NCBI GenBank assembly: GCA_040901985.1
Contig: JBBDYC010000001.1
Coordinates: 1-60,475 of the forward strand
DNA from: Gemmatimonadaceae bacterium
GTDB taxonomy: Bacteria > Gemmatimonadota > Gemmatimonadetes > Gemmatimonadales > Gemmatimonadaceae
Direction of reading: 5' to 3'
DNA: 60,475 nt
Shown here: piece after piece, positions 18,390 through 58,066 of the stretch
How positions within the stretch are numbered: position 1 is the first letter of the stretch
Layout: each line of letters starts with the position of its first letter
The notes under the pieces: model-generated
What the model saw: only the letters and a program-made list of their open reading frames with translations
Databases searched by the model: none
What the model was told of the DNA's origin: nothing
Position numbers and translations under genes: made by a program

Positions 18390-18390
18390 C

Positions 18391-19638: not shown

Positions 19639-19642
19639 CCCG

Positions 19643-22858: not shown

Positions 22859-22923
22859 GCGATCAGGCGGCGACCAGGGTTGGTGGCGGGGCGCCGGGAT
22901 ACTCGCACTCGAGGAGCAGACCC

Positions 22924-28751: not shown

Positions 28752-28797
28752 GTGCATCCGCGAAGGGGTGAACATCGGTCGAAGCAGCGGAGGAACG

Positions 28798-28947: not shown

Positions 28948-28965
28948 ACAGATATTTACATTGCC

Positions 28966-31317: not shown

Positions 31318-31333
31318 CCGCCCTCCCGGGTCG

Positions 31334-32098: not shown

Positions 32099-32125
32099 TT
32101 CAGTAATCTCGATGGGCTCGCACCA

Positions 32126-36587: not shown

Positions 36588-39527
36588 CTACCGCCGTGCC
36601 TGCGCTCCCGTCTCCACGGGCCCGAACACCCGATCCAGGAACGCATTGATCGGCGGCACGCGCACTTCGACCGGCGGGTTGTGCCCCACCCCGTCCAGCA
36701 GCACGAGCTCCTTCGGCTCGCGCAAGAGGTTCCAGAGCGGCAGTCCGCGTGAGAGCCAGGGATGCTCCTCGTCCAACTGCCCATTGATCACGAGTTTCGG
36801 CACGCGGATGTACGGTGCGAAGTTGAAGTTCGCCGCCTCGGGCAGCGTCGGCTGTATGCGTTCGTCGATCCCCGCGCCGGCGAATATGACCGCCTTGAAG
36901 CGATCATCCAACGCCGCGAAGACCAGTCGCGATCCCGCGCCCCAGCTGAGTCCATAATACGCGACCCGCGTCGTGTCGACCTCGGTCCGCGTCGAGAGAT
37001 AGTCCAGCGACATCCGCAGTTCCGTCGCGTGCCGCACCATCTGGTCGCGGAACCCGACCGAGGGTGGCGGCGCGGGCGTCGCGCCCGACGGGAATGGACG
37101 CTCGATCATCCCGTCGAACACGGGCGCGAGCAACGCCCGCCCCGCCTTGATGTGCGGTCCCAGATCGGCCTCTACCGTCGTCCACACCGGCTCGAAGAAG
37201 AACGCCCCGGAGCTCGACACGTACACGATCGTCTGGAAGGGCGCACGGGCGCGCGTGGGGAGATAGAGATAGACGAGGATCGAGTCGCCGGCGACGCCGT
37301 CGATCCAGAGCCGTTCGCGCGTCCAGTCCGGCGTCGTATCCGTCCGGACGACGCGCGCGTTCGCGGGCTGGCGGTCGTAGCGGTAGAAGCCGAGCAGGGT
37401 CCGATACGTGGCCGCGTCGACCGGGCGGTACGAGGGAGTAGGTATCTGGATCAGCACCGGGCCAGCCCCCTGATCGCCGCCTTCCGAGGAAGGGTCCGCA
37501 TTGCGCGCGCACCGGAACCCGATGGCCGGCGAGGCCGACTCGCCCGGCAGCGATCCGAGCACCGCGAAGAGATACGCCGGGTCCTGCCAGGAGCCGCCGG
37601 TGGCCGAGTAGCCGTCGGGCCCCGGGTTCTGCAACCACTCCTTCGCGTTCCCGGCGAGCGCGTGGACGCCGTAGGGGCTGATTCCGAATGGGAAGGCGTC
37701 GACCGGGGCCGTGCCGGAGCCGCCAAAGTTCGCGCGACGCCCTGTGCTGACTGTCGCCGACATGTATCCCCACGGCATGATGACTCCCCACGGCGAGACG
37801 ATCCCGTCGCGCGAGGCCTTCTCCCATTCATACAAGGTCGGCAGCCGCTTCCCGTGGGACACACAGAACGCGGCCGCCTCGAACCACGACACACCCGTCA
37901 CCGGATGGTCGGCACGCTCGGCCGGCGGCTCCTGACTCACCCAGTCACGGGGCGCCCTGAGCCCGGTGCGATCGACGAATCGCGACGGGGCGATCCCCGC
38001 TGCGGTCGCGGCACCCCAGTACTCCGCCTGCCCGTAGCCGCCCCTGCGCACGAACTCGCGATACTGCGCATTGCTCACCTCGAACCGGTCGAGGAAGTAC
38101 GGACGCAGGTCAGCGGCCATTCCCAGCGGAAGGGCCGGACCGACGATCTCGTAACGTCCGCCCGGGATGGCGACCATCCCTTCCGGCACGCTGTCGGCAG
38201 GGAGCAGCGCGAGCGAGAGGGAGACCCGACGCCCGTCGACACCCGGAACGTTCTCGCGGCCGAAGAGACTCGACGCGATGCGCTCGAGTGGTGCGTAGCG
38301 CTCCTTCCGCACGACCAGCCGGAACTCGCCGCGCGCGATCCGCCGCGCCGTGATCGGGGTGGTGCCGAAGCGAACGCTGTCGCCTACGGGCTCCGCGCCC
38401 GAAGGGATCCGCTGTATCCAGACCTCTGCGCCGGCCGGGTCGCTCGTGACCGTGAGCAGGTCGGAGACCGTCGCAAGGAGCGCCACGAGCGTGCTGTCGT
38501 CCCCGAGCCGACGCTCGGCGCGCTCGGCCAGCGCGAATGCGTCGGGGTAGCGCCCGGCTGCCGCGAGCGCCGCGATCTCCGGCAGCAACTCTCGCGCCTT
38601 CCCCGTCTGTGCGCTCGACCAGAGTGGCCAGACGGTCGCTGCGACGATGGCGAGCGCGACGGCCCCGATCGCCACCAGTTTCCCGGGACTCACCGTCGCA
38701 ACGACCGGCAGCGCACACGCGGCGATGAACTCGTTCGGGGTCGCGAATCGCTCGCCCGGCGACTTGGCCAGCGCACGCTGCAGCGCGGCCTCCACCTCGC
38801 TCGGCACGTCCGTCCGCAGGGCACGGACCGAGCGCGGCGGGTCGGCCATGATCTGGACCATCACCGACTGCACGTTCGGGCCGGTGAACACCGGCTCACC
38901 GGCAAGCATCTCGAACAACACACAGGCGAGCGAGTACACATCGCTCCGCCCGTCGAGCGGCTGGTCGGCCGAGACCTGCTCCGGACTCATGTACGTCGGC
39001 GTGCCGAGCGAGATCCCCACCGACGTCAGGCGTCCGCGATCGACGTGGGAGAGCGCCAGTGCGATGCCGAAGTCCGCGACGAGCGCTTCGTTCCCGGTGA
39101 GCAGGATGTTGTCCGGCTTGATGTCTCGATGGATCACGCCGCGACTGTGCGCCGCCGTGAGCGCCGAGGCGACGTCCCCGGCGATGCGGAGCGCGTCGGC
39201 GAACGGGAGCTTCTTGTCGCGGTGGAGCCGGGCGCGGAGCGACTCGCCTTCGACGTACGGCATCACGTAGAAGAACAGGCCGTCCGCCTCACCGGAATCG
39301 AACAGCGGCAGGATGTGCGGGTGTTGCAGCCCGGCCGTGACCTCGATCTCCTGCAGGAAGCGATCGCTGCCGAGTGCGGCGCTCAACGCGGGGAGCAGGA
39401 CCTTGATCGCGACCTGTCGACGATGCTTCAGATCCTCGGCCAGATACACGGTCGCCGTGCCGCCGCGACCGAGCTCGCGGACGACGCGGTAGCGGTCGGG
39501 GAGAGAGGGAAGGCTGGCCGTGGTCAT
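36588..39527 (-). CDS. Ser/Thr kinase fused to FGE-sulfatase-like domain and C-terminal alpha/beta hydrolase
   Basis: Kinase motifs; TM; FEVSNAQY..F, HPVTGVSW.EA..FC, RLPT..EWEKA, GNAKEW, IGFRC; GLSWG, GQLD, GHNPP. Confidence 0.9.
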   Translation of the reverse strand: MTTASLPSLPDRYRVVRELGRGGTATVYLAEDLKHRRQVAIKVLLPALSAALGSDRFLQEIEVTAGLQHPHILPLFDSGEADGLFFYVMPYVEGESLRARLHRDKKLPFADALRIAGDVASALTAAHSRGVIHRDIKPDNILLTGNEALVADFGIALALSHVDRGRLTSVGISLGTPTYMSPEQVSADQPLDGRSDVYSLACVLFEMLAGEPVFTGPNVQSVMVQIMADPPRSVRALRTDVPSEVEAALQRALAKSPGERFATPNEFIAACALPVVATVSPGKLVAIGAVALAIVAATVWPLWSSAQTGKARELLPEIAALAAAGRYPDAFALAERAERRLGDDSTLVALLATVSDLLTVTSDPAGAEVWIQRIPSGAEPVGDSVRFGTTPITARRIARGEFRLVVRKERYAPLERIASSLFGRENVPGVDGRRVSLSLALLPADSVPEGMVAIPGGRYEIVGPALPLGMAADLRPYFLDRFEVSNAQYREFVRRGGYGQAEYWGAATAAGIAPSRFVDRTGLRAPRDWVSQEPPAERADHPVTGVSWFEAAAFCVSHGKRLPTLYEWEKASRDGIVSPWGVIMPWGYMSATVSTGRRANFGGSGTAPVDAFPFGISPYGVHALAGNAKEWLQNPGPDGYSATGGSWQDPAYLFAVLGSLPGESASPAIGFRCARNADPSSEGGDQGAGPVLIQIPTPSYRPVDAATYRTLLGFYRYDRQPANARVVRTDTTPDWTRERLWIDGVAGDSILVYLYLPTRARAPFQTIVYVSSSGAFFFEPVWTTVEADLGPHIKAGRALLAPVFDGMIERPFPSGATPAPPPSVGFRDQMVRHATELRMSLDYLSTRTEVDTTRVAYYGLSWGAGSRLVFAALDDRFKAVIFAGAGIDERIQPTLPEAANFNFAPYIRVPKLVINGQLDEEHPWLSRGLPLWNLLREPKELVLLDGVGHNPPVEVRVPPINAFLDRVFGPVETGAQARR

Positions 39528-39600
39528 CGCGAGACCAAGTTGCGGACCGCGCGCCTTTCGCGCCACCCTCGCCTCACGGTGCGGATCGCTGCCTCCCGCT

Positions 39601-40045
39601 CGGGATAGAAAGTTCAATCGCGGTGTGGGAAGTATTTCGCGTGCGCGCGCGCACGGCGAGGGCGGCGGGCACCGGCGGCGGCAATACAACGGGCGGCGGG
39701 GCGGCCTTATCCGGCACGCCGGTCGCCGGCCGGGCTCCGGCTGGCGGCCAGGTAAGGCGACGGCCGGACCTCCGGGCACGCCGCGAGCCCCCGCGGGGTT
39801 GGGTGGGGGGGACCACCGGGTACCGTCAGGGGGCGCGCAGGGCGTCGGCGGGTGCGCTGGCAGGCCCCGGCGCGCCGGGGCCCGCGTCGAGGGGGACTCC
39901 GCGCGCCGGCCGGGGTCGCGCGTGCGGCGCGGGTGCGGAGGTGCGTGAGGATCTGGTCAATCGCCGACGGCTGGCTGATGAAGGCGAGAATCCGCATAAG
40001 CCCGCGGCACGTCGGGCACCCGAGGGGGTCGACCTCGAAGATCTG
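39601..40045 (-). mobile_element. IS91/ISCR-like remnant (type A): transposase C-terminus plus ori end
   Basis: QIFEVDPLGCPTCRGLMRILAFISQPSAIDQILTHL; ends ATTGAACTTTCTATCCCG. Confidence 0.82.
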
Positions 40046-40594
40046 TACTGCGCCGCGCACTAGCTGTACGGGCGTCTCCACGGACTCGGCGGCCTTCGGC
40101 CCGCGACGGCAATCTTCGGCGGCTCGCTCGGCGGGTCCGCGGTCGGCGAGGCCAAGACGTTCCATCAGATCCAGGACCTGACCGGGAAGTCGCCGGAGGA
40201 GATTGCGGCGGATCTGAGGGTGTGGTTCGCCGAGTCGGACCCGATCACCGACTTCAACGCATTCTTCGAACGCGTCGCCGTCCACGTGAAACGCAACAAC
40301 CTGGTATTGGCCCCGTTGAACGTGGTGATGTTCTCCGACAGCGTTCCGGACTTTCCGGGTGCCCGGGTCCGAGGCGACTCGCTCTATGCGAGGGTGAACC
40401 TCGGTCCGCTGGTTTGCCTCTCCCGGAGCGTAACGGTCCGGCTGCTGTATGCCACGCCGACCGTCTCGCAGAGCTGGGAGGAGCACGTGCTGCGGAAACG
40501 GGTGCGGCTCTGGACGCAGGACGCGCAGACGGCGCTCTGGGATTGGACGCGGGAGATTGTGGACTTCCGGGTGCGGCGGCCGCGGGTGATCTGA
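40046..40594 (+). pseudogene. 5'-truncated hypothetical gene with internal stop
   Basis: Frame of ORF 40220-40594 stays protein-like back to the IS91-remnant junction, with one TAG at ~40061 and no native start. Confidence 0.45.
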
Positions 40595-40666
40595 GGCGGC
40601 CGGGCCGTGGCGTGCGCAGGCGGGGGCGCGTGCACGACGCTCTCGCCCGTGTCGTATCTTCGTGTG

Positions 40667-42169
40667 ATGTCGCCGCCCCGTGGCCCCGAGATTGTCGAGC
40701 GCGCGCCGCAGCACTCGGCCCGCGAGGCGCTCCGCACGAGTGACGGGAGTTTCACCTACGGCGAGCTGCTCGACGCATCCGGGCGTGTTGCCGCGTCGCT
40801 GTTGGACGGCCGGGCGGATCTCGACGGGGCGCGCATCTGTTTTCGAGTCGCGCCGGGGTTCGCCCACATCGCCGTGCAATGGGGCATCTGGCGCGCCGGC
40901 GGGATTGCGGTGCCGCTGGCGCTGTCGCATCCACCGCCGGAACTCGAGTACGTCGTGCGGGACGCCGCGGCCGGGCTCGTGATCGCCGACGGGGATGGCG
41001 AGGGCACCTGCCGCACGGTCGCTGCTGCCGCTGCTGCGCGGCTGGTTCGCGCCGAGGAACTCCTCGCTGGCGCGCGATCCGCCCCGCTGCCGACGCTCGA
41101 GCCCGGCCGCCCGGCGATGATGGTTTACACCAGCGGCACCACCGGCCGGCCGAAAGGCGTCGTCTCCACGCACGCCAACATCGCCGCGCAGATATCGGCG
41201 CTGGTCGAGGCGTGGGCGTGGACACCGGACGACCGCATCCTCCTCGTCCTCCCCCTCCACCACGTCCACGGCATCATCAACGTTGTCGGCTGCGCGCTCT
41301 GGAGCGGTGCCTGTTGCGAGATCCTCCCCGGGTTCGACGCCGACGCCGCGTGGGAGGCGATTGCCTCGGGACGGCTCACGCTCTTCATGGCGGTGCCGAC
41401 GATCTATCGGCGCCTGATCGCCGCGTATGACACGGCGCCAAGCGCGCGCCAGGCGACACTGCGCGCCGGTTGCGCGAGAATCCGCCTGATGGTCTCCGGT
41501 TCCGCGGCGCTCCCCATCCAGACACTCCAACGCTGGCGCGAGATCACCGGCCACACGCTCCTCGAACGCTACGGAATGACGGAGATGGGAATGGCACTTT
41601 CCAATCCTCTCCACGGCGAGCGACGCCCCGGATCTGTTGGCACGCCGCTCCCGGGCGTCGAGGTGCGGCTCGTCACGGACGCTGGAGCGCCCGTGGATGA
41701 CGGCACACCCGGCGAACTCGAGGTCCGCGGCGCGAACGTCTTTCGCGAGTACTGGCGCCGCCCCGACGAGACCCGCGCCGCCTTTCGCGACGGATGGTTC
41801 CGCACCGGCGATACCGCCGTGTTCGAGCGCGGCTCGTACCGCCTGCTCGGCCGCTCGAGCGTGGATATCCTCAAGACGGGCGGCTACAAGGTCTCGGCGC
41901 TCGAGATCGAGGAGCTGCTGCGCGAGCATCCTGCCATCACGGAGTGCGCGGTGGTCGGCGTCGAAGATCCGGAATGGGGCGACCGCGTCTGTGTCGCGGT
42001 CGAGCTGCGTCCGGGAGCGACACTGGCGCTCGACACGCTGAAGCTCTGGGCGAAGGATCGGCTCGCGCCTTACAAGGTGCCACGGGACCTGCGCACGGTT
42101 GCCGCACTGCCGCGCAATGCGATGGGGAAGGTCGTGAAGCCCGACGTCGCGAAGCTGTTCGGCGCCTAG
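40667..42169 (+). CDS. Acyl-CoA synthetase, malonyl-CoA synthetase (MatB/ACSF3)-like
   Basis: YTSGTTGRPKG, LPLHHVHG, FMAVPTIY, LLERYGMTE, GWFRTGD, LPRNAMGKV. Confidence 0.82.
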   Translation: MSPPRGPEIVERAPQHSAREALRTSDGSFTYGELLDASGRVAASLLDGRADLDGARICFRVAPGFAHIAVQWGIWRAGGIAVPLALSHPPPELEYVVRDAAAGLVIADGDGEGTCRTVAAAAAARLVRAEELLAGARSAPLPTLEPGRPAMMVYTSGTTGRPKGVVSTHANIAAQISALVEAWAWTPDDRILLVLPLHHVHGIINVVGCALWSGACCEILPGFDADAAWEAIASGRLTLFMAVPTIYRRLIAAYDTAPSARQATLRAGCARIRLMVSGSAALPIQTLQRWREITGHTLLERYGMTEMGMALSNPLHGERRPGSVGTPLPGVEVRLVTDAGAPVDDGTPGELEVRGANVFREYWRRPDETRAAFRDGWFRTGDTAVFERGSYRLLGRSSVDILKTGGYKVSALEIEELLREHPAITECAVVGVEDPEWGDRVCVAVELRPGATLALDTLKLWAKDRLAPYKVPRDLRTVAALPRNAMGKVVKPDVAKLFGA

Positions 42170-42196
42170 CGTGTCGCTGCGCCGCCGCCGCGCGCG

Positions 42197-43591
42197 CTAG
42201 AGCTCCGGCAGCCCGAGTGGCTGCATTCCCTGCACGACACCGGCGAGCGCGAGCGCGGCCTCCTCACCGCGCGGACCGCCGACGACCTGCATCCCAACCG
42301 GCATCCCTCCGGCGTCGAGCCCGCAGGGCACGGACACCACGGGCAATCCGGAAAGACTCAGCAGGAAGGTCGGGGCGAGCCAGTCCACATACGTCTTCAT
42401 CGCGCGGCCGGCCACCATCTCGGGGTAGTTCTGCTCCACCGGAAACGGCGACACGCACATCGTCGGCGTCAGCAGATGGTCGTACCGCGCGAAGAAGTCG
42501 CGGAACCTCCTCCACACCTGACCGCGCACGTGATGCGCCGCGCCAAGGTCGCGCGGCGAGCCGGAAAGTCCCGCGTTCGTGTTGTTGCGCACATTCACGC
42601 CGAAGCCGTCGAGCTGCCCGAGCTTGTCGTACATCCAGGCGACGAACCACTCGCCGCGGAGCGCGAGAAAGGCGTCGCGGGCAAAGCTGAGGTCGAACGG
42701 CACTTCCTCCACCGTCGCGCCGGCGTCGGTGAGGGCCAGCGCGGCACGTCGGCACGCCGCCTCGACACTCGGCTCGATGCCGATCCCGGCAATGTCAGGA
42801 CAGTAGGCGATCCGCACGCCGCGCTTCACGCCGGCGCGCACCGCACCGACGAAGTCGCGATCGGCAGCCGGTTGCGCCAGCGGCGCGCGCGGACTCGGCC
42901 CCGCGACCGCCTGCAGCATCAGCGCGACGTCCTCGGCGGTGCGCGCCATCGGTCCGGAGACCTGCAGTGTGTCCCACACCCAATCGGCAGGGTCGGTCGG
43001 TACGAGTCCCGGAGAGGGTCGAATCCCCACCACGCCGCAGAAGCTGGCCGGGATGCGCAACGACCCACCGAGATCGGTGCCCTCGGCCAGCGCGATCATG
43101 CCCGTGGCGAGTCCCACGGCGCCGCCGCCGGTGGAGCCGCCGCAACTCTTCGACGGATCCCACGGATTGCGCGTGCGGCCGAACACATCGTTCCACGTGT
43201 TCCCGCCGGCGGCGAACTCGGGCGTATTCGTCTTGCCGAGGATGACCGCTCCGGCCTCCCGCAGACGCGCGACAATGAGGGCATCCTCCGTCGGCACGTG
43301 ATCCTTGAAGAGCGGCGACCCGAAGGTCGTGCGCAGGCCGGCCACCTGCGTGACGTCCTTGATGCCCACTGGCAACCCCGCGAGCGGGCCAACATCCTCG
43401 CCGCGCGCAATTCGTTTCTCCAACTCCTTGGCATCGTCGAGTGCGCGCGGGTTCAGCGTCACGATTGCGTTGAGGGTGCCGTTCAGCTTCCCGACGCGCG
43501 TGAGCGCCTCCTCGACCACCGCCACCGGCGACATCGCGCGCGCGCGAACCCGCGCGGCAATCTCGCTGGCCGTCGCGATTCCGGGGGTCAC
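42197..43591 (-). CDS. Amidase-signature family amidase
   Basis: PVGIKD (Lys), GKTNTPEF, GGSTGG, GTDLGGSLRIPA (Ser). Confidence 0.92.
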   Translation of the reverse strand: MTPGIATASEIAARVRARAMSPVAVVEEALTRVGKLNGTLNAIVTLNPRALDDAKELEKRIARGEDVGPLAGLPVGIKDVTQVAGLRTTFGSPLFKDHVPTEDALIVARLREAGAVILGKTNTPEFAAGGNTWNDVFGRTRNPWDPSKSCGGSTGGGAVGLATGMIALAEGTDLGGSLRIPASFCGVVGIRPSPGLVPTDPADWVWDTLQVSGPMARTAEDVALMLQAVAGPSPRAPLAQPAADRDFVGAVRAGVKRGVRIAYCPDIAGIGIEPSVEAACRRAALALTDAGATVEEVPFDLSFARDAFLALRGEWFVAWMYDKLGQLDGFGVNVRNNTNAGLSGSPRDLGAAHHVRGQVWRRFRDFFARYDHLLTPTMCVSPFPVEQNYPEMVAGRAMKTYVDWLAPTFLLSLSGLPVVSVPCGLDAGGMPVGMQVVGGPRGEEAALALAGVVQGMQPLGLPEL

Positions 43592-43619
43592 GCTTGGGCG
43601 CTCCTCACTGTCATTGCAC

Positions 43620-44423
43620 TCAGACCTTCGCCGGCCACGCGCCCTGGAACGCGACCGCGCGACAGAACGCCGCCTCGCCGCCGCGGAACTTCCACGGGAA
43701 GACACCGAGGATCAAGCGCTTGTTCTGCAGTTCCGGCGCCTCGATGTCGCCGCCGAGGTTCTCGACGTGCATGCAGTCGTGCGGGAAGAGGGCGTTGTGC
43801 GTGAGCTGGTACGCCGAGTCGGGAAACATCTTCGCCACGCCCTTGGGGCCGCCAAAGAGCTCCTCGGCGCGCTTCCGCACCTTGTCGCAGTGGCCGTGCA
43901 TTCCCTTGCCGAGGAAACGGCCGATCGGAAGGTTCATTGGGTGGTCGGTCGAGATGCAGTCCATCCCCCAGATCTTGATTTTCTTCTTGAGGAGCCAGGG
44001 CACGAGGTCGGAATGCGCGCCCGGGTGCATATGGATGTATTTCTCCTCGTCGGGTTCCTCGCCGAACTGCGAGTGGCGCCCCCAGCCAGTGTTGAGGAAG
44101 AGGATGTCGCCCTTCTTCACCTCGACCCGCTTCTCGATCATCTTCGGCGTGTAGACGGCGAGCTCGTGCATCTCGTCGCGCAGGTCCACGATCACGCCGG
44201 GGCCGCAGAGCCACTCGACGGGGATCTCATCGATCGTGCGGCCGGCGGTCACGAAGTGCCGCGGCGCATCAAGGTGCGTTCCCATATGGTTCGACGTCTG
44301 GATGTACTGCGCGTTCACCCCGTGCTCCGCCTTCCGCTTGATGTACTTCACCTCGAACGGCGGATAATACGGCCAGAAGGAGCATTCCTGGTTGAGCGGC
44401 TGGGAGAGGTCGTAGATCTTCAT
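43620..44423 (-). CDS. Cyclase-family metal-dependent amidohydrolase (kynurenine formamidase/isatin hydrolase fold)
   Basis: HMGTHLDAP.HF motif, GDILFLNTGW, VENL; true start ATG at 44423. Confidence 0.88.
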   Translation of the reverse strand: MKIYDLSQPLNQECSFWPYYPPFEVKYIKRKAEHGVNAQYIQTSNHMGTHLDAPRHFVTAGRTIDEIPVEWLCGPGVIVDLRDEMHELAVYTPKMIEKRVEVKKGDILFLNTGWGRHSQFGEEPDEEKYIHMHPGAHSDLVPWLLKKKIKIWGMDCISTDHPMNLPIGRFLGKGMHGHCDKVRKRAEELFGGPKGVAKMFPDSAYQLTHNALFPHDCMHVENLGGDIEAPELQNKRLILGVFPWKFRGGEAAFCRAVAFQGAWPAKV

Positions 44424-45910
44424 CGGAGTGCCTCGCGTGGGCGGGTGTGGGAGCGAAAGGTCAGGTGCGCGCGGCGCGCAAGCCACCAGTGGACAACGAA
44501 CGACACGATCGCGGCGGAGAACCAAGCGCCGCTGAACAGGAAGTGCAGTGCGGGGACCACGGCGCCCAGGAGTGCCACGGCGACGCCGGCCCCGAGTGCC
44601 GTCATCGCGCCGAGGTTCACGCCGCGGTGGTACCAGTACGGGCCGCCTTCGGTGAACAACCCAGCCACGTCGAGCACGCCGCGGCGCACGACGAGGTAAT
44701 CGCAGACGATCACGCCGCCCACCGCTCCGAGGAGCCCGGAATAGCTGAGGAGCCAAGTCTGGTAGGCGTCGAGGAGGCGCCAGGGGAAGAGCGCGATCCC
44801 GACCGTCGCCGCGACGATCCCGCCGAGTCGCTGGGAGATCCGGCTGGGGCGCAGGTTCGCGATCGCGGCCGCCGGCGCCACGACGTTCGCCGCGATGTTC
44901 GTCGTCAGTGTCGCGATGAGGAGCACGAGCAGCGCGATCAACGCCACCGCAGTGCTCCCGCTCTCTGCGGCGATCCGCGCGATGAGCGTGACCGGATTCC
45001 AGATCGCCTCGCCGTAGATCTGCACCGTCGCACTGGTGACCGCGACGCCGATGAACGCGAAGAGGGGCATCGTGGTGAGCAGCCCGATCGTCTGGCCGAG
45101 CGCCTGGTCGCGCTGGCTCCTCGCGTAGCGCGTGAAGTCGGGAATGCTGAGCGCGAGCGTGGCCCAGAATCCGACCATCGCCGTCACCCACGGAATGAAG
45201 AGCGCCGCGGAGAATCGCCCTGGCGCGTCGCCGAGGGAGGTGGCGCCGCCGAGCAGCGTGCCGAACCCGCCGACTCTCGCCTGGGCCCACCAGAGCAGGG
45301 CGAGGCCGGCAACGATGAGCAGGGGCGCCGCGGCGGTCTCCAGCCACTTGATGGATTCGGTGCCCGCCCAGACGAAATAGATGTTGATCGTCCAGAAGAG
45401 CAGGAAGGCGAGAAAGTGGGGGAGTCCGTAGCCCATCCAGAGCGCGCCGCCGCCGACTGACGCCCACGCGGGCCAGAGGAGCGAGATCATCTCGTGGATT
45501 GCCAGCCCACCGACCCAGGTCTGGATCCCGAACCACCCGCAGGCGACGATGGCGCGCAGCAGCGACGGCACGTGCGCGCCGCGGAGGCCGAACGCCGCGC
45601 GCACGTAGACGGGGAAGGGAATCCCGTAGCGCGTCCCGGCGTGCCCGTTGACCAGGAGCGGCACGAGGACGATCGCGTTGCCAAGGAGGATGGCGGCGAG
45701 CGCCCACTGCCAGGTGAGTCCGGCCTGGATGAGCGCGGCGGCAAGCATATACGTCGGGATGCAGACGCTCATCGCGACCCAGAGCGCCGCATAGTGCCAG
45801 AGTCCCCAGCTCCGCTCGGCGGCACTCACCGGCGCGAGGTCGGCGCCGAAGTAGCGCGACGCGCTCGGCGCGCCGAGGTCCGGGGCGATGCCCGGCGGGA
45901 GCCAGCTCAC
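44420..45910 (-). CDS. NCS1 nucleobase:cation symporter
   Basis: LWVAMSVCIPTY, YGIPFPV..RA.FG..GA, ACGWFGIQTW, FWATL.L.IPDFTRY. Confidence 0.93.
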   Translation of the reverse strand: MSWLPPGIAPDLGAPSASRYFGADLAPVSAAERSWGLWHYAALWVAMSVCIPTYMLAAALIQAGLTWQWALAAILLGNAIVLVPLLVNGHAGTRYGIPFPVYVRAAFGLRGAHVPSLLRAIVACGWFGIQTWVGGLAIHEMISLLWPAWASVGGGALWMGYGLPHFLAFLLFWTINIYFVWAGTESIKWLETAAAPLLIVAGLALLWWAQARVGGFGTLLGGATSLGDAPGRFSAALFIPWVTAMVGFWATLALSIPDFTRYARSQRDQALGQTIGLLTTMPLFAFIGVAVTSATVQIYGEAIWNPVTLIARIAAESGSTAVALIALLVLLIATLTTNIAANVVAPAAAIANLRPSRISQRLGGIVAATVGIALFPWRLLDAYQTWLLSYSGLLGAVGGVIVCDYLVVRRGVLDVAGLFTEGGPYWYHRGVNLGAMTALGAGVAVALLGAVVPALHFLFSGAWFSAAIVSFVVHWWLARRAHLTFRSHTRPREALR

Positions 45911-46776
45911 GCGGTCCGCGCCCGCTCGGCGGCGATCGTCAGCGCGCGCCGCGTCAGCACGGCCGCGAGCTGCCGACGGTACGCCGCGTCGGCGTGAATG
46001 TCACTCGGCGGGTCCACCTCGGCGCGCACGAGCTCGGCCGTCGCGAGGATGTTCGCCGCCGAAGCGTCCTGGCCGACCAGCGACCCGCTCGCGGCGGTGA
46101 GCACCGGGCCGTCGCCGACGCTGAGGAGCGCGATCCACGCGCGGCTAATCCGTCCCGCGGCATCGAGCGAGAGCTCGACCGCGACGCCGGCGAGCGCGTA
46201 GTCGCCGTGGCGGCGCGCGACCTCAAGAAAGGCGCTTCCTGCGCGCGCCGCTCGCGACGGGATCTCGATGGCCGTCAGCAGCTCGCCGGGCGCGAGCGCG
46301 GTGGCGAAGAGGCCGGTGAAGAAGTCGGTGGCGCGGACCCAACGGTCGGCACCGCGTGCGCGGAGCTGGAACCGCGCGTCCAGCGCGATCATCACCGCCG
46401 GCAGCTCGGCGCTGGGGTCGGCGTGGGCGAGACTTCCACCGATCGTGCCGCGGCTCCGGATCTGCGGATGCGCCACGTGCGGCATCGTCTCGGCGAGGAG
46501 GGGAGAGCGCTGCCGCACGAGATCGCTACGCTCGACGGCAAGATGACGGGTCATCGCGCCGATCCGCAGTCCGCCATCGGCCGTGGCGGCGATGCCTGCC
46601 AGTTCGCGCACGCCGTTGAGGTCCACCAGCGCCGCGGGGTGGGCGAGGCGAAAGTTCATCGCCGGAATCAGGCTCTGCCCGCCGGCGAGCGGCTTGGCCT
46701 CGGGGTGGTCGGCGAGGAGCGCGAGCGCGTCGTCGAGCGTCGCCGCGCGATGGAAGATGAACGCGGCGGGTTTCAC
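45907..46776 (-). CDS. Molybdenum hydroxylase FAD subunit (CoxM-like)
   Basis: LAGGQSLIP, QIRSRGTIGGSLAHADPSAE, RRHGDYA. Confidence 0.92.
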   Translation of the reverse strand: MKPAAFIFHRAATLDDALALLADHPEAKPLAGGQSLIPAMNFRLAHPAALVDLNGVRELAGIAATADGGLRIGAMTRHLAVERSDLVRQRSPLLAETMPHVAHPQIRSRGTIGGSLAHADPSAELPAVMIALDARFQLRARGADRWVRATDFFTGLFATALAPGELLTAIEIPSRAARAGSAFLEVARRHGDYALAGVAVELSLDAAGRISRAWIALLSVGDGPVLTAASGSLVGQDASAANILATAELVRAEVDPPSDIHADAAYRRQLAAVLTRRALTIAAERARTA

Positions 46777-49640
46777 GCGGCCCCGCCGCGGCGCGCCCGC
46801 AGCGCCTTGTCGAGCGCCTTGTCCAGCGCCTTGTCGAGCGCCTTCAGCCCCTGCGCGCTCATCACCTTGCTCATCGAGTCGAGCATCCGTTGGCCGACCG
46901 CCGCGATTGTCCCGCCGAGTTGGAGCTCGGCGCGGTAGGTCATCGCGGTGCCGATGCCACCCGCACCCGGCGCGAGCGCGACCTTCGCCGATCCGGCGAC
47001 GAAACCGAGCCTGCCGCGCGCATTCACCCGCATCGCGTAGCGCTCGCCGACGACCTGATCCGTGAGGTCCACCTCGAGGGTGAACGTCGCCGCCGAGATG
47101 GGCCCGACGCCGACCTTGAGCTCCCCGACGTACCGATCGCCGAAGCGCTCCAGCCGCTGGGCGCCCGGCATCACGCTCGCGAGGACCGCCGGGTCGAGGA
47201 GCAGCGAGTACACCTCGCGTGGGGGACCGGCGAAGTCGTAGCGGCCATCAATGATGAGTGCGCGACCACCGGCCGCTGGCGCGGCGGCCTGTGCGCCTGC
47301 GCCGCCCTGCTTGGCCTCGGCCATCAGCGTGAAGAGGCGCCCCGGCGAGAGCGGGATCTCGGTGATCTCGACGCCACTGCCGGCGAGCGCGTCCTCGACC
47401 GCCTGGGCGAACGCCGCACCGGTCGGGATCGCGCCGGCCTCGCCCACGCCCTTGGCGCCGAGCGGATTCAACGGGGAGGGCGTCTCGACGTGCGCCATCT
47501 CGACCGTCGGCACGTCCAGCGCGGTCGGCATCAGATAGTCCATCAACGAGGCGTTGAGCAACTGGCCGCCGTCGTCGAACACCAGCTGTTCGTAGAACGC
47601 ATTGCCGATCCCCGCCGCCACACCGCCCTGGATCTGGCCTTCGACGATCATGGGGTTGAGCTGGACGCCGCAGTCGTGCACGACGACATAGCGCTGGATG
47701 GTGACTTGGGCGGTCTCGGTCTCCACCTCGACGATCATTGCGTGGACGCCGCTGGCGGTGCTGCCGCGCGCGGGGCCGAAGTACTTCGTTGCCTCAAGGC
47801 CGGGCTCGCTGCCGGGCACCACTGCGCCGCGCAGCGGGTTCGACCGCTGCGCGAGCTCGCCGAGGGTGAGTCCCCGTTGCGGGTCGTCACGGACGAAGAT
47901 GCGGCCGCCGCCGACCGCCAGCCTGGCCTCCTTCACGCCGAGAAGCTTCGCCGCCAAGGTGAGCGCCTTTTGCCGGACCGCCACCGCCGCCTCGTGGCAG
48001 GCGCTCCCTGCCACGACCGCGCCCCGGCTCGCGAACGTGCCGGTCCCCCAGCCGAACGCCTGCGTGTCGCCCGTGACGACGCTGACGTCGCTCGTCTCGA
48101 CGCCGAGTTGGTCGGCGACGACCTGCGCGAATGAAGTGAAGTGTCCCTGACCCTGCGTGCCGACGCCGGTGGCGAGCCGGACGTGCCCGCTCGGCTCGAC
48201 GGTGACGCGCGCGCCCTCGTACGGGCCGATTCCCGTCCCTTCTATATATGAGACGATCCCGAGCCCGACGTGCCTTCCGGCGGCGCGCAGTCGCGGCTGC
48301 TCCTCGCGCACGAACCGGTCGTAGCCGATCATCTCGACCGCCCTGGCCATTGCCGGTTCGTAGTCGCCGCTGTCGTAGACGAGCGGCTGAAAATCCTGGA
48401 AGATGATCTTGTGGTCGTGCGGGAAGTCGCGCGGCCTGAGGAAGTTGCGGCGGCGGATTTCCACGCGGTCCATCCCCAGTTCCCGCGCCGCGATGTCGAG
48501 CAGGCGTTCCATCACGAAGACGCCGTGCTGCCGGCCGGCGCCGCGCACCGGGGTGACGATCGGCTTGGTGGTAAAGACCGCCCGGAACTCACTCGAGTAG
48601 TTGGGCACCGCGTACGGACCGAGCAGGGTGCACTGGCTGTTGATCGGCACCGTCAGGCCATACGGGTCGTAGGCGCCGGTGTCGTGCAGGAAGACGTCCC
48701 TGACGCCGAGAATGCGGCCGTCCTTGGCGAGTGCGATCTCGCTGTCGTGGATCTGGCCGCGCTCCTGCGTGGTGGCGGCGAAGTTCTCGCGGCGGTCCTC
48801 GACCCATTTCACCGGGCGGCCGACGGTCCGCGCGACCCACGGGATCACGACCTCTTCCGGATAGAACATCATGATCTTCGGGCCAAACCCACCGCCGACA
48901 AACGGCGCGATGACACGGACCTGCGATTCGCTCAGGCCGAGCATCCGCGCGAGGCCGTTCCGGATCGGGATCGGCGCCTGCGTCGTGTCCCAGATCGTCA
49001 TTTCCCCGGCGATCTGATCCCAGGACGCGACGACCGCGCGATTCTCGATCGCGCCGGCGATGCCGCGGTCGTAATGGAAACGGCGGGCGATGACGCGGTG
49101 GGCCTTGGCACGCGCCTTGGCGTAGTCGCCCTTGGCCTGGACCACGTGGGCGGCGAGGTTCGAGTCCAACTGGTCGTGGATCCGTGGGGCGCCCGGCGCG
49201 AGCGCGGCCTCGAGGTCCACCACCGCCGGGAGGGGCTCGAGGTCCACCACGATGTCCGCCAGCGCATCCTCGGCGATGTAGCGGCTCTCGGCGATGACCA
49301 CCGCGATCGGTTCGCCGACGTAACGCACCTTCTCCCGCGCGAGCGGCACCTGCGTGGCGGCGTGGAAGACAAGTCCGGCAATCGGCGGGGGCGGCACGAG
49401 GAGCGGCCCCGGCTGCCAGTAGTCGCCGAGGTCGGGCGCCGCGAAGGCGGCGATGACGCCCGGACGCTGACGCGCCCGTGCGAGGTCCACGCCCCGGAGG
49501 CGCGCGTGCGCGTGCTCGCTCCGCAGGAACGCGGCGTGCGCCATCATCGGCAATCGCACGTCGTCCACGAACTGCGCGCGGCCGGTGAGGAGGCGCGCAT
49601 CCTCGGTGCGGCGGATGGACTGCCCGACCAGGCGCCGCAC
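46773..49640 (-). CDS. Molybdenum hydroxylase large subunit (CoxL-like) fused to C-terminal CoxG/SRPBCC domain
   Basis: R.ED.RLLTG, VGGGFGPK, PVRGAGR loop, GQGH.T, GQIQGG, KGVGEAG; C-terminal LLDP.VLA..MPG and GGTIAAVGQRM. Confidence 0.9.
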   Translation of the reverse strand: MRRLVGQSIRRTEDARLLTGRAQFVDDVRLPMMAHAAFLRSEHAHARLRGVDLARARQRPGVIAAFAAPDLGDYWQPGPLLVPPPPIAGLVFHAATQVPLAREKVRYVGEPIAVVIAESRYIAEDALADIVVDLEPLPAVVDLEAALAPGAPRIHDQLDSNLAAHVVQAKGDYAKARAKAHRVIARRFHYDRGIAGAIENRAVVASWDQIAGEMTIWDTTQAPIPIRNGLARMLGLSESQVRVIAPFVGGGFGPKIMMFYPEEVVIPWVARTVGRPVKWVEDRRENFAATTQERGQIHDSEIALAKDGRILGVRDVFLHDTGAYDPYGLTVPINSQCTLLGPYAVPNYSSEFRAVFTTKPIVTPVRGAGRQHGVFVMERLLDIAARELGMDRVEIRRRNFLRPRDFPHDHKIIFQDFQPLVYDSGDYEPAMARAVEMIGYDRFVREEQPRLRAAGRHVGLGIVSYIEGTGIGPYEGARVTVEPSGHVRLATGVGTQGQGHFTSFAQVVADQLGVETSDVSVVTGDTQAFGWGTGTFASRGAVVAGSACHEAAVAVRQKALTLAAKLLGVKEARLAVGGGRIFVRDDPQRGLTLGELAQRSNPLRGAVVPGSEPGLEATKYFGPARGSTASGVHAMIVEVETETAQVTIQRYVVVHDCGVQLNPMIVEGQIQGGVAAGIGNAFYEQLVFDDGGQLLNASLMDYLMPTALDVPTVEMAHVETPSPLNPLGAKGVGEAGAIPTGAAFAQAVEDALAGSGVEITEIPLSPGRLFTLMAEAKQGGAGAQAAAPAAGGRALIIDGRYDFAGPPREVYSLLLDPAVLASVMPGAQRLERFGDRYVGELKVGVGPISAATFTLEVDLTDQVVGERYAMRVNARGRLGFVAGSAKVALAPGAGGIGTAMTYRAELQLGGTIAAVGQRMLDSMSKVMSAQGLKALDKALDKALDKALRARRGGAA

Positions 49641-49643
49641 CGG

Positions 49644-50138
49644 TCAGGGCCTCGCCGCGGTGTCGCTCGGCACGCCCGCGCCGCGCGCGACGGCGAGCTT
49701 CACCGCCTCGACGATGTTGGCGTAGCCGGTGCAGCGGCAGAGATTCCCTGAGAGCGCCTCGCGGATCTCCTCGTCGCTCGGCGCGGGGTGATCGCGCAGG
49801 AACGGGATGAGGGTCATCAGGATGCCCGGCGTGCAGAATCCGCACTGGAGTCCGTGCGCCTCCCGGAACGCCTCCTGGAGCGGGTGCAGCGCCACTTCGG
49901 TGCCGAGGTGTTCGACCGTCTCCACGCGCGCGCCATCGGCCTGGACGGCGAACATCAGGCAGGCGCGCACGGCCTCGCCGTCCACGAGGACGGTGCAGGC
50001 GCCGCAGACGCCGTGCTCGCAGCCGACGTGGGTGCCGGTCAGGCCGAGGTCGTGGCGGAGGAAGTCGCTGAGAAGGAGGCGCGCCTCGACCGTGCGCTCG
50101 ACGCGCTGGCCATTGAGGGTGAAGGCGACCGGGTGCAC
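49644..50138 (-). CDS. Molybdenum hydroxylase 2Fe-2S subunit (CoxS-like)
   Basis: GCEHGVCGACT, QCGFCTPG, NLCRCTGY. Confidence 0.95.
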   Translation of the reverse strand: MHPVAFTLNGQRVERTVEARLLLSDFLRHDLGLTGTHVGCEHGVCGACTVLVDGEAVRACLMFAVQADGARVETVEHLGTEVALHPLQEAFREAHGLQCGFCTPGILMTLIPFLRDHPAPSDEEIREALSGNLCRCTGYANIVEAVKLAVARGAGVPSDTAARP

Positions 50139-50199: not shown

Positions 50200-50224
50200 A
50201 CTTTGTAGAACAAAGTACTTGACA
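50200..50224 (+). promoter_or_regulatory. Palindromic operator next to a -35 box
   Basis: ACTTTGT-AGA-ACAAAGT (50200-50216), then TTGACA (50219-50224). Confidence 0.65.
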
Positions 50225-50253
50225 AGCGCCAACTCCCTCCCCACTTTCCGCGT

Positions 50254-50880
50254 ATGGCGAACCCAGTGCGTGAACCAAAGGCGCTCAGCGACCGGGCGAT
50301 TGCAGACCTGTCGTTCATCCGCAAGACGATGGAGGGCGCGGCGTCGTTCACCGACGTCTCGGGGCGCGGATTGGTCGCGGCCGGCCTCACGGCGTTGCTC
50401 GCCGCCGCCTGGGCACACCGGCAGCCCAGTGGGGCGCGCTGGCTTGCGGTCTGGATCGTCGCGGCCGCGGTCGCGGCAATCGTCTCGGCCGCGATGATGC
50501 GGCACAAGATGCTCAGGCGGCAGGCGAACGCGCCGATGTTGAGCGTGCCGGCGCGCAAGTTCTTTCTTGGCTTCTGGCCGGCCATCGTCGCCGGCGCGGT
50601 CTTGACCGCCGCGCTCGTCGAGCCGGCGATGCTCCAGGCGGCGGACCACGCGGCGTTCGGCACGATCGCGGGGCTCTGGATCCTCCTGTACGGCGTCGGC
50701 GTGATCACCGCCGGCGCCTTCTCCGTGCGCGCCGTCCCGTTGATGGGAGTCCTCTTCCTCCTCCTCGGCAGCGTGGCCCTCTTCACGCCGGGGCTCGATG
50801 CCGACCTCTGGCTCGCCGGTGGGTTCGGCGCCATCCATATCGTGTCTGGCGTCGTCATCGCCCGGAGGCACGGTGGCTAG
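50254..50880 (+). CDS. Hypothetical integral membrane protein
   Basis: DLSFIRKTME N-terminus, ~6 TM segments, FGAIHIVSG end; overlaps regulator start. Confidence 0.75.
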   Translation: MANPVREPKALSDRAIADLSFIRKTMEGAASFTDVSGRGLVAAGLTALLAAAWAHRQPSGARWLAVWIVAAAVAAIVSAAMMRHKMLRRQANAPMLSVPARKFFLGFWPAIVAGAVLTAALVEPAMLQAADHAAFGTIAGLWILLYGVGVITAGAFSVRAVPLMGVLFLLLGSVALFTPGLDADLWLAGGFGAIHIVSGVVIARRHGG

Positions 50881-51340: not shown

Positions 51341-51378
51341 GGCGCCGCGCAGGCGCCCTCTTCAGGGTCACAAACTTT

Positions 51379-52071
51379 ATGATACAAAGCACTCTCTCGC
51401 TCCCGCGTCACGTCGCCATCATCATGGACGGCAACGGCCGGTGGGCCCAACACCGCGGGCGACCGCGCTGGGCCGGCCACCGCGCCGGCGCGGTGGCCGC
51501 CCGGGAGATCGTTGAGCACTGCGCGAAGATCGGCGTGTGCCAACTCACGCTCTTCACCTTTTCCAGCGACAACTGGAGTCGCCCCCGGCCCGAGGTCGAG
51601 ACCATCTTCCGCCTCTGCGAGGAGCGGCTCGACGCCGAGTGCGATGCGTTGGCGCGCGCCGGCGTGCGCACCACGGTGATTGGCCGACGCGATCGGTTGC
51701 CGGACGCCCTGCGGCGCGCCATCGCCAACGTCGAGTCCGCGACGACCAACGGGCGGCGAATGGACCTGCGGCTGGCCATTGACTACTCGAGCCGAGCGGC
51801 GCTGGCCGAAAGCCTCGGTATTCCGCGGCCCCTGCGGTTGGTCAGCGCCGACCCGGGCGCCACGATCCTCCCGCCGGTGGACCTGCTCGTGCGCACCGGA
51901 GGCGAGCGGCGGCTCTCCGACTTCCTGCTTTGGGAGTGCGCGTACGCCGAGCTGAGTTTCCTCGACGTCCTCTTTCCGGACTTCAGGCCGTCCCATCTCG
52001 ACGCCGTCCTTGCCGACTATTCCGCGCGTGACCGTCGGTTCGGCGGGCTGTCGGGGAGGGAGATTGCATGA
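51379..52071 (+). CDS. uppS: cis-prenyltransferase (undecaprenyl diphosphate synthase paralog)
   Basis: HVAIIMDGNGRWA, FSSDNWSRP, DLLVRTGGERRLSDFLLW, RRFGG. Confidence 0.88.
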   Translation: MIQSTLSLPRHVAIIMDGNGRWAQHRGRPRWAGHRAGAVAAREIVEHCAKIGVCQLTLFTFSSDNWSRPRPEVETIFRLCEERLDAECDALARAGVRTTVIGRRDRLPDALRRAIANVESATTNGRRMDLRLAIDYSSRAALAESLGIPRPLRLVSADPGATILPPVDLLVRTGGERRLSDFLLWECAYAELSFLDVLFPDFRPSHLDAVLADYSARDRRFGGLSGREIA

Positions 52072-57071: not shown

Positions 57072-57196
57072 CCGACGGTCCACCCGGTTGACCCCACGCC
57101 ACTTCGGGCCTAACTTACTAGGCTCTGTTCCGTGCCGCCCGTCCGGGCGATCCACGTAGAGGCAGAAGGACGAACACCGGAAGGAATTCAAGCCAG

Positions 57197-57595
57197 ATGC
57201 CGACGATCAACCAGCTCGTCCGGCAGAGCCGCCGCGCCGTGGTCAAGAAGGACAAGGCGCCCGCTCTGAAGGAGAATCCGTTCAAGCGGGGCGTGTGTAC
57301 GCGCGTGTACACCACGACCCCCAAGAAGCCGAACTCGGCGCTGCGCAAGGTCGCCCGCATCCGGCTCGTCAACGGCTTCGAAGTCACCGCCTACATCCCC
57401 GGCGAAGGCCACAACCTGCAGGAGCACTCGATCGTGCTCATTCGGGGCGGCCGCGTGAAGGACCTCCCGGGCGTGCGCTACCACATCGTGCGCGGCAAGC
57501 TCGACGCCTCCGGCGTGCAGGGCCGCAACAAGAGCCGCTCCAAGTACGGGACCAAGAAGCCGAAGGGCAATGCCCCGGCCAAGGGAGCCAACTAG
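57197..57595 (+). CDS. rpsL: 30S ribosomal protein S12
   Basis: [36 protein letters not shown]. Confidence 0.99.
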
Positions 57596-58066
57596 ATGAG
57601 CCGCCGCAAGAGCGCCGTCAAGCGCACGATCCTCGCCGATTCGCGCTATGACAGCCAGACCGTCTCCAAGTTCATCAACGTCCTGATGTACCAGGGCAAG
57701 AAGTCCACCGCCGAGCGCATCTTCTATGGCGCGATGGACATCGTCGAGGCCAAGGGCGACCAGCCGGGCGTCAATGTCTTCAAGCAGGCGCTGACCAACC
57801 TCAAGCCAGTCGTCGAGGTGAAGAGCCGCCGCGTCGGTGGCGCGACGTACCAGGTGCCGGTCGAGGTGCGTCCCGAGCGCCGGACCGCCCTCGCGATGCG
57901 CTGGTTGATTCTCTACTCCCGCGAGCGCAACGAGAAGTCGATGGCCGAGAAGTTGGCGGGTGAGGTGATTGCGGCCGCCAAGGGAGAAGGGAACGCGGTC
58001 AAGAAGAAGGAAGACACGCACCGGATGGCCGAGGCCAACAAGGCGTTTGCGCATTACCGCTGGTAG
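57596..58066 (+). CDS. rpsG: 30S ribosomal protein S7
   Basis: [27 protein letters not shown]. Confidence 0.99.

Follow-up and report, generated by a model that had tools for sequence, protein, structure and literature searches.

A probably mobile coxSLM-cyclase-amidase operon from Gemmatimonadaceae is a candidate for a variant oxidative pyrimidine pathway

Here we describe an operon, coxS-coxL(G)-coxM-NCS1-cyclase-amidase, that converges on a gene for a MatB-type ligase in a 60,475-nucleotide stretch of DNA (hereafter the window) from a Gemmatimonadaceae bacterium (GCA_040901985.1, contig JBBDYC010000001.1), whose genome is 99.97% complete. With moderate confidence, and judging from sequence and gene context, we read the operon as an accessory, horizontally mobile set of genes for the catabolism of a pyrimidine nucleobase, the likeliest being uracil and/or thymine. 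We hold the general scheme behind this reading (heterocycle import, hydroxylation, hydrolysis and malonate activation) with high confidence. The components of the system are as follows.

49644-50138, minus strand: coxS-type small subunit with two [2Fe-2S] domains (Pfam Fer2_2 8e-32, Fer2 2e-09)
46773-49640, minus strand: coxL-type molybdopterin large subunit (Pfam Ald_Xan_dh_C, MoCoBD_1, MoCoBD_2)
46848-47234, minus strand: CoxG/SRPBCC domain, C-terminal in coxL, residues 803-931 (Pfam COXG 3e-13)
45907-46776, minus strand: coxM-type medium subunit, binding flavin adenine dinucleotide (FAD) (Pfam FAD_binding_5 3.5e-52, CO_deh_flav_C 6e-18)
44420-45910, minus strand: NCS1 nucleobase:cation symporter (Pfam PF02133 1e-105)
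43620-44423, minus strand: cyclase-family metal hydrolase of 267 residues, the proposed ring opener (Pfam PF04199 6.9e-38)
42197-43591, minus strand: amidase-signature amidase of 464 residues from a GTG at 43591 (Pfam PF01425 3.3e-102)
40607-42169, plus strand: ligase resembling MatB-type (methyl)malonyl-coenzyme A (CoA) synthetases (AMP-binding domains; MatB proteins are the best solved relatives)

In the pathway that we propose, the NCS1 permease would import the base, and the CoxSLM-type molybdenum/FAD/[2Fe-2S] hydroxylase, possibly tethered to the membrane by its fused CoxG domain, would hydroxylate it at C6 to give barbiturate or 5-methylbarbiturate. The cyclase-family metal hydrolase would then open the tri-oxo ring, the job done in Rhodococcus by the unrelated AtzD-family barbiturase, and the amidase-signature enzyme would strip the remaining amide or ureido nitrogen to leave malonate or methylmalonate. 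Finally, the convergent MatB-type ligase would produce malonyl-CoA or (2R)-methylmalonyl-CoA, of which the latter could enter the methylmalonyl-CoA mutase route. Within this scheme we infer the substrate, the order of the two hydrolases, which of them opens the ring and the nitrogen product. The sequence from uracil or thymine through barbiturate to malonate is the most economical interpretation because the genes form a conserved unit, the ligase is co-conserved with them, orthologues of the ligase are linked to malonate transporters, and two families of nucleobase transporters occur in the related loci.

An earlier first-pass annotation of this DNA had proposed the tightly coupled operon, and this proposal held in full: all genes were found in their places, each with a Pfam assignment, and adjoining genes overlap by 4 bases at three junctions (coxL/coxM, coxM/NCS1 and NCS1/cyclase). 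The gap between coxS and coxL is 3 bases, that between cyclase and amidase is 28 bases if the amidase starts at the GTG at 43591, and the convergent ligase and amidase genes have 27 bases between their stop codons. The ERYGMTE motif that had been ascribed to the ligase was also found, and it aligned to the same motif in Streptomyces coelicolor MatB. Because the G+C content of the window is ∼70%, it is full of long spurious frames, and the real genes were picked out by their third-position G+C.

The gene set is a conserved unit and not a chance juxtaposition. In a scan with one genome per species, 182 stretches encoded a relative of the cyclase, and the best 80, chosen by a cyclase identity of at least 76%, were kept. 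These loci, many of which are short, derive from metagenome-assembled genomes labelled Gemmatimonadota (including Longimicrobiaceae), Vicinamibacterales and other Acidobacteriota, KSB1, Bacteroidota, Caldilineaceae and others, and their cyclases are 76–93% identical. By tblastn with the window proteins, coxM was present in 66 of the 80 loci, coxL in 63, the amidase in 62 and coxS in 56; the ligase was present at an identity of at least 50% in 22. In the 42 loci whose sequence reaches 8 kb or more to each side of the cyclase, coxS, coxL and coxM were each present in 40 and the amidase in 39, and all four occurred together in 37. No other gene was widely conserved near the cyclase in the related loci; TPR, kinase, ABC transporter and SIR2-like genes found there were treated as mere neighbours. 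In three Longimicrobiaceae-type loci (L052, L054 and L056, at about 10800–13400), a SIR2-like protein of ∼510 residues, accompanied by small open reading frames of unidentified family, stands between cyclase and amidase.

As a check, the first-pass annotation had named conservation of the cyclase neighbourhood with matB and NCS1. An NCS1 permease of at least 55% identity was present in 23 of the 80 loci, with a more distant one (38–48%) in 10 more. In L063 and L066, NCS2 xanthine/uracil-type permeases occur instead of NCS1.

We determined the distribution of the ligase in a phylum sample of 251 genomes, of which 27 contain the cyclase and 75 the ligase. Of the 27 cyclase-bearing genomes, 25 also have the ligase, compared with 50 of the remaining 224, and 23 carry both genes on a single contig, no more than ∼7 kb apart; hence, the matB-like gene is co-conserved with the operon, a point on which the first-pass annotation had staked its pathway. 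In the window's own family, none of the 52 other genomes has the cyclase and only one has a ligase, as a weak 44% match, which argues that the operon and the ligase arrived here together. Of the five acidobacterial genomes with the operon but no ligase nearby, four hold a 61–69% identical ligase elsewhere. In L063, L064 and L066, the ligase is encoded on the same strand directly before the cyclase.

The ligase is closer to MatB than to any other family of ANL enzymes. Its best solved relatives are the MatB structures 3nyq (293.5 bits) and 4fuq (279.6 bits), followed by the next non-MatB family at 209.6 bits and oxalate-CoA ligase at 204; on the NCBIfam model for malonyl-CoA synthase, PRK07514, it scored 377.2 bits, below the cut-off of 558. 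Ten ligase loci were fetched from phylum genomes without the cyclase, and the neighbours were scanned in nine. Here, the ligase orthologues were associated with malonate uptake, MadL and MadM adjoining the ligase in three loci and MatC in one; an SSF sodium:solute symporter adjoined it in three, and nothing telling was found in two. In a maximum-likelihood tree of 36 ligases, the MadLM-linked proteins are interspersed among those linked to the operon; L097 is the sister of the Bacteroidota-type operon-linked group L063/L064/L066/L069 (support 95/85), and a 34% identical paralogue sits on a very long branch. Because orthologues beside MadLM or MatC interleave with operon-linked ones, the ligase orthogroup appears to activate malonate-type acids, and because these orthologues adjoin malonate transporters where the operon is absent, the end product of the operon is probably malonate or methylmalonate.

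Other CoA-handling genes were found in the vicinity of the cyclase. A family III CoA-transferase of the dicarboxylate type adjoins it in four loci (L060, L065, L067 and L070, three of them labelled KSB1); where the amidase is present too (L060, L065 and L067), the CoA-transferase gene stands between it and the cyclase. Methylmalonyl-CoA mutase, for which (2R)-methylmalonyl-CoA is the substrate, occurs in five loci and carboxyltransferase in three, and the window's own genome has two methylmalonyl-CoA mutase genes away from the operon. MatB is reported to make (2R)-alkylmalonyl-CoA (PMC6542682). The operon shares with MatABC/MadLM malonate use the nearness of its ligase to MatB, orthologues beside MadLM or MatC, and the ERYGMTE and HVHG motifs; it differs in that the ligase scores below the malonyl-CoA synthase cut-off and that malonate would be made inside the cell and not imported. 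Malonyl-CoA decarboxylase (PF05292) was not found in the window's own genome, in a search whose control was silent too.

The three subunits of the molybdenum hydroxylase contain all the domains of the xanthine oxidase/CoxSLM family (Pfam E ≤1e-09, mostly far stronger), namely two [2Fe-2S] domains, the FAD domain, the hammerhead domain and two molybdopterin-binding domains. Form I aerobic carbon monoxide (CO) dehydrogenase has an active-site loop AYxCSFR with a Cu-binding cysteine; the loop in coxL reads VTPVRGAGR (VTPVRGAGRQHG), which is form-II-like and departs from the form I motif. The large subunit scored below the curated cut-offs of all named NCBIfam models: 883.6 bits (cut-off 950) on the best, NF040766, for the large subunit of aerobic CO dehydrogenase group 5; 607 bits (cut-off 790) on the archaeal glyceraldehyde dehydrogenase alpha model; and 542.6 bits (cut-off 991) on TIGR02416. 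Its best solved relatives are a CO dehydrogenase (8uem, 493 bits), quinoline 2-oxidoreductase (1t3q, 490 bits) and 6-hydroxypseudooxynicotine dehydrogenase (7dqx, 446 bits). The enzyme therefore resembles the form II CoxL/quinoline 2-oxidoreductase clade in its three-subunit molybdenum/FAD/FeS build and VRGAGR-type loop; elsewhere, form II CoxL is usually described as a putative CO dehydrogenase with the substrate unspecified, whereas here the context points to a heterocycle. In most related loci, CoxG is a separate gene after coxL (for example, L012:8627-9088, COXG 2.7e-23), and the fused coxL-CoxG, with at least 97% of the query covered, was found in six (L001–L004, L043 and L074). Plasmid-borne relatives of the large subunit, the best of them in Serratia and Variovorax, stand in unrelated contexts and were set aside as uninformative for the operon.

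The proposed ring opener belongs to the PF04199 cyclase family by both motif and fold. The metal motif HxGTHxDxPxH is kept as HMGTHLDAPRH (SNHMGTHLDAPRHF), and H46, T49, H50 and D52 are invariant in an alignment reaching down to 29% identity. A first AlphaFold2 model from a shallow alignment (predicted local distance difference test, pLDDT, 70.7; active-site region below 50) was discarded, and a second, from a more diverse alignment (to 29% identity), reached a pLDDT of 93.2. The nearest folds to this model in Foldseek were cyclase-phosphotriesterase 8f9x, with the best E-value and a template-modelling (TM) score of 0.69–0.71, and isatin hydrolase 4m8d/4j0n, with a TM score of 0.72 (Foldseek probability 1.00; identity to the solved folds 18–24%). 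The protein is distant from kynurenine formamidase, with 57 bits in the PDB search and 60 bits against an equivalog cut-off of 223 on TIGR03035, and is not a kynurenine formamidase proper. Thus, it has the cyclase fold and the HxGTHxD metal motif in common with isatin hydrolase and kynurenine formamidase but differs from them by its low identity of 18–24% and by an extra conserved segment of ∼50 residues (162–215).

The cyclase orthogroup is compact: a scan of 1.84 billion representatives returned 79 representative clusters at E ≤1e-30, many of them fragments, and past these the identity falls to 30–45%. Homologues across phyla are 76–96% identical, and in the related loci the cyclase (76–93%) is more alike across phyla than coxL (mostly 62–84%) or the amidase (57–84%), a pattern that reflects unusually strong constraint or recent spread. 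The cyclase gene itself has a G+C content of 63% versus 70–74% in its neighbours, with a second-position G+C of 0.38. A metagenomic protein of 409 residues (P0014) joins a cyclase domain to CO_deh_flav_C, the C terminus of coxM; this may be a genuine fusion or else an error in gene calling where coxM meets the cyclase. A cyclase on a Rhodococcus ruber plasmid, with 35% identity, stands in a ring-hydroxylating dioxygenase/nitrilase context and was rejected as part of a different system.

The amidase is a member of the amidase signature family, with readable GIKD, GGSTGG and GGSLRIPA motifs, which we take to carry the Ser-cisSer-Lys triad. It has no specific named relative in NCBIfam or in the PDB search: it scored 399.6 bits on its best model, PRK07486 (cut-off 465), 236 bits on the AtzE family model (cut-off 426) and 109 bits against malonamidase E2. 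The permease is placed in the NCS1 family by its domain and site residues, although it scored slightly below the cut-off on TIGR00800 (340.2 versus 353.1 bits). Its solved relative is Mhp1 (153 bits), whose W117, Q121, W220 and N318 align with identical residues and whose Q42 aligns with a Cys.

Against this background, we compared the operon with the known oxidative route. In Rhodococcus, this route consists of uracil/thymine dehydrogenase (EC 1.17.99.4), barbiturase (EC 3.5.2.1) and ureidomalonase (EC 3.5.1.95). The succession of its reactions has been known since the 1950s (PMC3758960), and it yields urea together with malonate from uracil or methylmalonate from thymine (PMC7662398). The proposed pathway shares with that of Rhodococcus erythropolis JCM 3132 and related bacteria, as described in PMC7662398 and PMC3758960, the course from the base through barbiturate and an open-chain amide to malonate or methylmalonate; it is unlike it in having a cyclase-family hydrolase in barbiturase's place, no urea-using enzymes and an attached malonyl-CoA synthetase. 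In the literature searched (most subscription journals lie outside it), barbiturase is the sole sequence-defined step of the oxidative route; no gene or sequence was found there for uracil/thymine dehydrogenase, none was named for the Rhodococcus ureidomalonase, and no paper dealt with the present combination of genes. Provided that the substrate is uracil or thymine, which we favor with moderate confidence, the operon would constitute a variant pathway with enzymes that differ from barbiturase. The first-pass annotation had envisaged two non-homologous replacements, of barbiturase by the cyclase and of ureidomalonase by the amidase. Of these, only the former is arguable: the AtzD/barbiturase family (PF09663) was not found in the window's own genome or in the 251 phylum genomes, in a search in which the control genomes were silent too.

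The closest described precedent for a cyclase-plus-amidase pair comes from the breakdown of pyridines, although its amidase, the 2-ketoglutaramate amidase HpoI/NIT, is a nitrilase-type omega-amidase and not an amidase-signature enzyme. Isatin hydrolases, which are among the closest folds to the cyclase model, open a lactam ring. According to PMC6214936, a PF04199 protein of the pAO1 kdhL operon has been proposed, as its authors' hypothesis, to open 2,3,6-trihydroxypyridine, and in Rhodococcus rhodochrous PY11 the corresponding step is carried out by HpoH together with the amidase HpoI. This lower 2-hydroxypyridine/nicotine pathway has in common with the scheme proposed for the operon a molybdenum hydroxylase (KDH) that yields a poly-hydroxylated N-heterocycle, a cyclase-family ring opener and an amidase leading to ammonia and a dicarboxylate; it differs in acting on a pyridine ring, ending in 2-oxoglutarate and having no CoA step.

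Clusters that resemble the operon also occur on haloarchaeal plasmids of cultured strains, with full-length cyclases of 38–39% identity. In the eight annotated loci inspected, the cyclase stands beside coxS-coxL, CoxG and coxM in five, and NCS2/SLC23 permeases were found in six, a CocE/NonD hydrolase in seven, a dihydropyrimidinase-like amidohydrolase in six and a CoA-transferase in two. The immediate neighbours of the Halostagnicola larsenii cyclase are a cytosine deaminase (459 bits against a cut-off of 438) and the cytosine permease CodB (393 bits against 326). Because the haloarchaeal clusters add a dihydropyrimidinase-like enzyme, the division of labor among the hydrolases can differ. Five loci (L102, L104 and L106–L108) share a conserved cluster of IclR regulator, XdhC, MocA-like nucleotidyltransferase, dihydropyrimidinase-like amidohydrolase, coxS-coxL, CoxG, coxM, cyclase, CocE/NonD hydrolase and NCS2/SLC23 permeases, together with a zinc alcohol dehydrogenase and sometimes a CoA-transferase. 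The cyclases of Haloarcula ordinaria, Halorussus halophilus and Haloarcula halophila, without Cox genes within the flank, were set aside.

A number of results weigh against assigning the operon to uracil and thymine. Only 14 of the 42 loci that extend for 8 kb or more on each side of the cyclase include the ligase, which is absent altogether from 2 of the 27 phylum-sample genomes and 1 of the 5 acidobacterial genomes that bear the operon and is common without the operon (50 of 224); it is a general malonate enzyme and not one dedicated to the operon. Ligase, amidase, large subunit and NCS1 protein all fall below the NCBIfam cut-offs of their nearest named models, and the best models of the NCS1 protein, all below cut-off, are of allantoin permease (275 bits versus 620). 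In three loci, XylR/V4R sigma-54 regulators, which are typical of aromatic-compound sensing, lie upstream of coxS. Urease exceeded its cut-off in 3 of the 251 genomes and in none of the 27 that bear the operon; nor did urea carboxylase do so in any of these 27, where only its biotin-carboxylase part gave matches. Dihydropyrimidinase, of the reductive route, was over the cut-off in 3 of the 27 operon-bearing genomes (one clear, two marginal) versus 54 of the 224 others, the latter figure including the unpublished genomes G155 and G180; complementarity with the reductive pathway is a weak trend among related genomes and was not counted as support. As for the haloarchaeal clusters, the link to cytosine deaminase is found in only one of the eight loci, their large subunits are 31–33% identical to that of the window, below many paralogues at 38–48%, and their permeases pass the xanthine-permease subfamily model. 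Because of these distant large subunits and permeases they may act on another base, and they are look-alikes and not orthologues.

The counts for urease and urea carboxylase also make doubtful the urea that the first-pass annotation had taken over from Rhodococcus as a product, because with neither enzyme in the 27 operon-bearing genomes, classical urea would be wasted. With urea as the product, both ring nitrogens would be lost; therefore, we think it likely that ammonia is formed in place of urea, owing either to the amidase or to the bond that the cyclase attacks. AtzE, an amidase-signature enzyme, deamidates the terminal ureido group of 1-carboxybiuret, with no urea released. By analogy, the amidase might deamidate the terminal ureido group of ureidomalonate, which is isosteric with 1-carboxybiuret, and the N-carboxy product might lose CO2 to give malonamate for a second deamidation. 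A fully urea-free oxidative breakdown of pyrimidines of this kind, by enzymes unrelated to the known barbiturase and with both ring nitrogens converted to ammonia without urease, is a tentative proposal that we consider doubtful as a whole. The cyanuric acid pathway (AtzD, then AtzE) would be its chemical analogue, in that a tri-oxo heterocycle is opened and an amidase-signature enzyme follows; it is unlike the operon in that the amidase here reaches 236 bits against the AtzE cut-off of 426 and that no AtzD, AtzG or AtzH was seen.

The sequences do not fix the substrate, every specificity model being below its cut-off, and the same enzymatic logic could serve another heterocycle that gives malonate or a 2-substituted malonate. 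A 5-substituted uracil, a 4-pyrimidinone, 4,6-dihydroxypyrimidine, a cytosine-derived base and barbiturate itself are the candidates, and we regard them, even jointly, as unlikely, with roughly one chance in a handful. The great distance of the cyclase from characterized members (57 bits to kynurenine formamidase, 18–24% to solved folds) leaves room for them; relatives of kynurenine formamidase act as formamidases, an activity suited to a ring without a 2-oxo group, and the missing urease and urea carboxylase fit a substrate that releases no urea. However, uracil and thymine are by far the commonest natural bases to yield malonate or methylmalonate on oxidation (PMC7662398), and a cyclase that is 76–93% identical and widespread in soil phyla implies a common natural substrate; the cytosine deaminase and CodB that adjoin the cyclase in Halostagnicola also speak against these alternatives. 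A further departure, which we judge improbable, is a non-pyrimidine N-heterocycle (pyridone/pyridine, hydantoin/parabanate or purine-type) broken down to a non-malonate product, with the ligase a mere neighbor. In its favor, the large subunit is as near to quinoline 2-oxidoreductase and 6-hydroxypseudooxynicotine dehydrogenase as to CO dehydrogenase, the NCS1 protein matches allantoin and hydantoin transporters best, the NCS2 partners are similar to xanthine permeases, Vicinamibacterales loci show no linkage to the ligase, the CoA-transferases also score on oxalate:CoA-transferase models, and the only described cyclase-plus-amidase precedent acts on trihydroxypyridine (PMC6214936). The ligase itself argues otherwise: it is found no farther than 7 kb from the cyclase in 23 of the 27 phylum-sample genomes, came with the operon into a family where none of the 52 other genomes has the cyclase, directly precedes the cyclase on the same strand in L063, L064 and L066, is replaced by a dicarboxylate-type CoA-transferase in four loci, and scores 293 bits on MatB versus 204 on oxalate-CoA ligase.

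The molybdenum enzyme might also be detached from ring chemistry altogether, either as a late aldehyde oxidoreductase (converting, for example, malonate semialdehyde to malonate) or as a form II CO dehydrogenase that has nothing to do with the hydrolases. In favor of this are the CoxG domain, an accessory of CO dehydrogenases, and the best NCBIfam models, which are those of CO dehydrogenase group 5 (883.6 bits, cut-off 950) and archaeal glyceraldehyde dehydrogenase alpha (607 bits, cut-off 790), but neither match reaches its cut-off, and the VRGAGR loop is not the form I CO-dehydrogenase motif. Moreover, translational coupling ties the hydroxylase genes to a nucleobase permease and two amide hydrolases, in a set that recurs in 37 of the 42 full loci, and uracil-type rings are not known to be opened by hydrolysis without prior activation. 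We consider this explanation very improbable.

On the uracil/thymine assignment, the operon offers candidate genes for all steps of the oxidative route in soil-abundant, hardly cultured phyla. If this assignment is correct, the cyclase would represent a second, unrelated solution to the opening of the barbiturate ring, and a clade of CoxL-like genes that surveys routinely count as putative CO dehydrogenases would gain a concrete substrate, which would affect estimates of soil CO oxidizers. On the urea-free proposal, the large subunit would also be the first sequence assigned to uracil/thymine dehydrogenase, and the widespread "form II CO dehydrogenase" genes of this clade in soil Gemmatimonadota and Acidobacteriota would acquire a function. 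The missing urea enzymes pose a clear either/or for the nitrogen product, urea or ammonia.

The operon is located in a variable island. The window opens with the end of rpoC (1-524) and closes with rpsL-rpsG (57122-58066), with 56 kb between them, and the same interval measures 2–3 kb in G089, of the same genus, and in G016, of the same family, but 88 kb in G010, another genome of the genus. Because the rpoC-rpsL spacing varies from 2–3 to 88 kb, we place the operon in a variable island inserted in the rpoBC/str region, a setting that fits its patchy distribution and the near-identical cyclase across phyla. Two coding-like open reading frames flank the system (40064-40594 and 50209-50880); neither gave a Pfam or NCBIfam match or had a counterpart in the 80 related loci. 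A scan for promoters and terminators gave nothing exceeding chance. In a locally AT-richer stretch upstream of coxS, we noted one further element.

50201-50215, no strand: perfect 15-base palindrome CTTTGTAGAACAAAG, a possible operator

This palindrome is unique in the window, with 0 expected from 100 shuffles, and a one-mismatch relative lies 1.2 kb away at 51375-51389. It was absent from the 112 other loci in which it was looked for, so that the role of an operator is unsupported. The same island also carries a copper/silver resistance block (13776-23295) that encodes a cupredoxin, a P-type ATPase with an HMA domain, an outer-membrane factor, an HlyD-type adaptor, an AcrB/CusA-type pump and a CsoR-like metal-sensing repressor. 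Elsewhere in the window, a Y2-transposase fragment lies at 31581-32099, and the stretches 26172-31431 and 36588-39779 encode three Ser/Thr kinases of very large size: the first type contains PD40 repeats, another TPR repeats, and the last is fused to an FGE-sulfatase domain and a PEGA domain.

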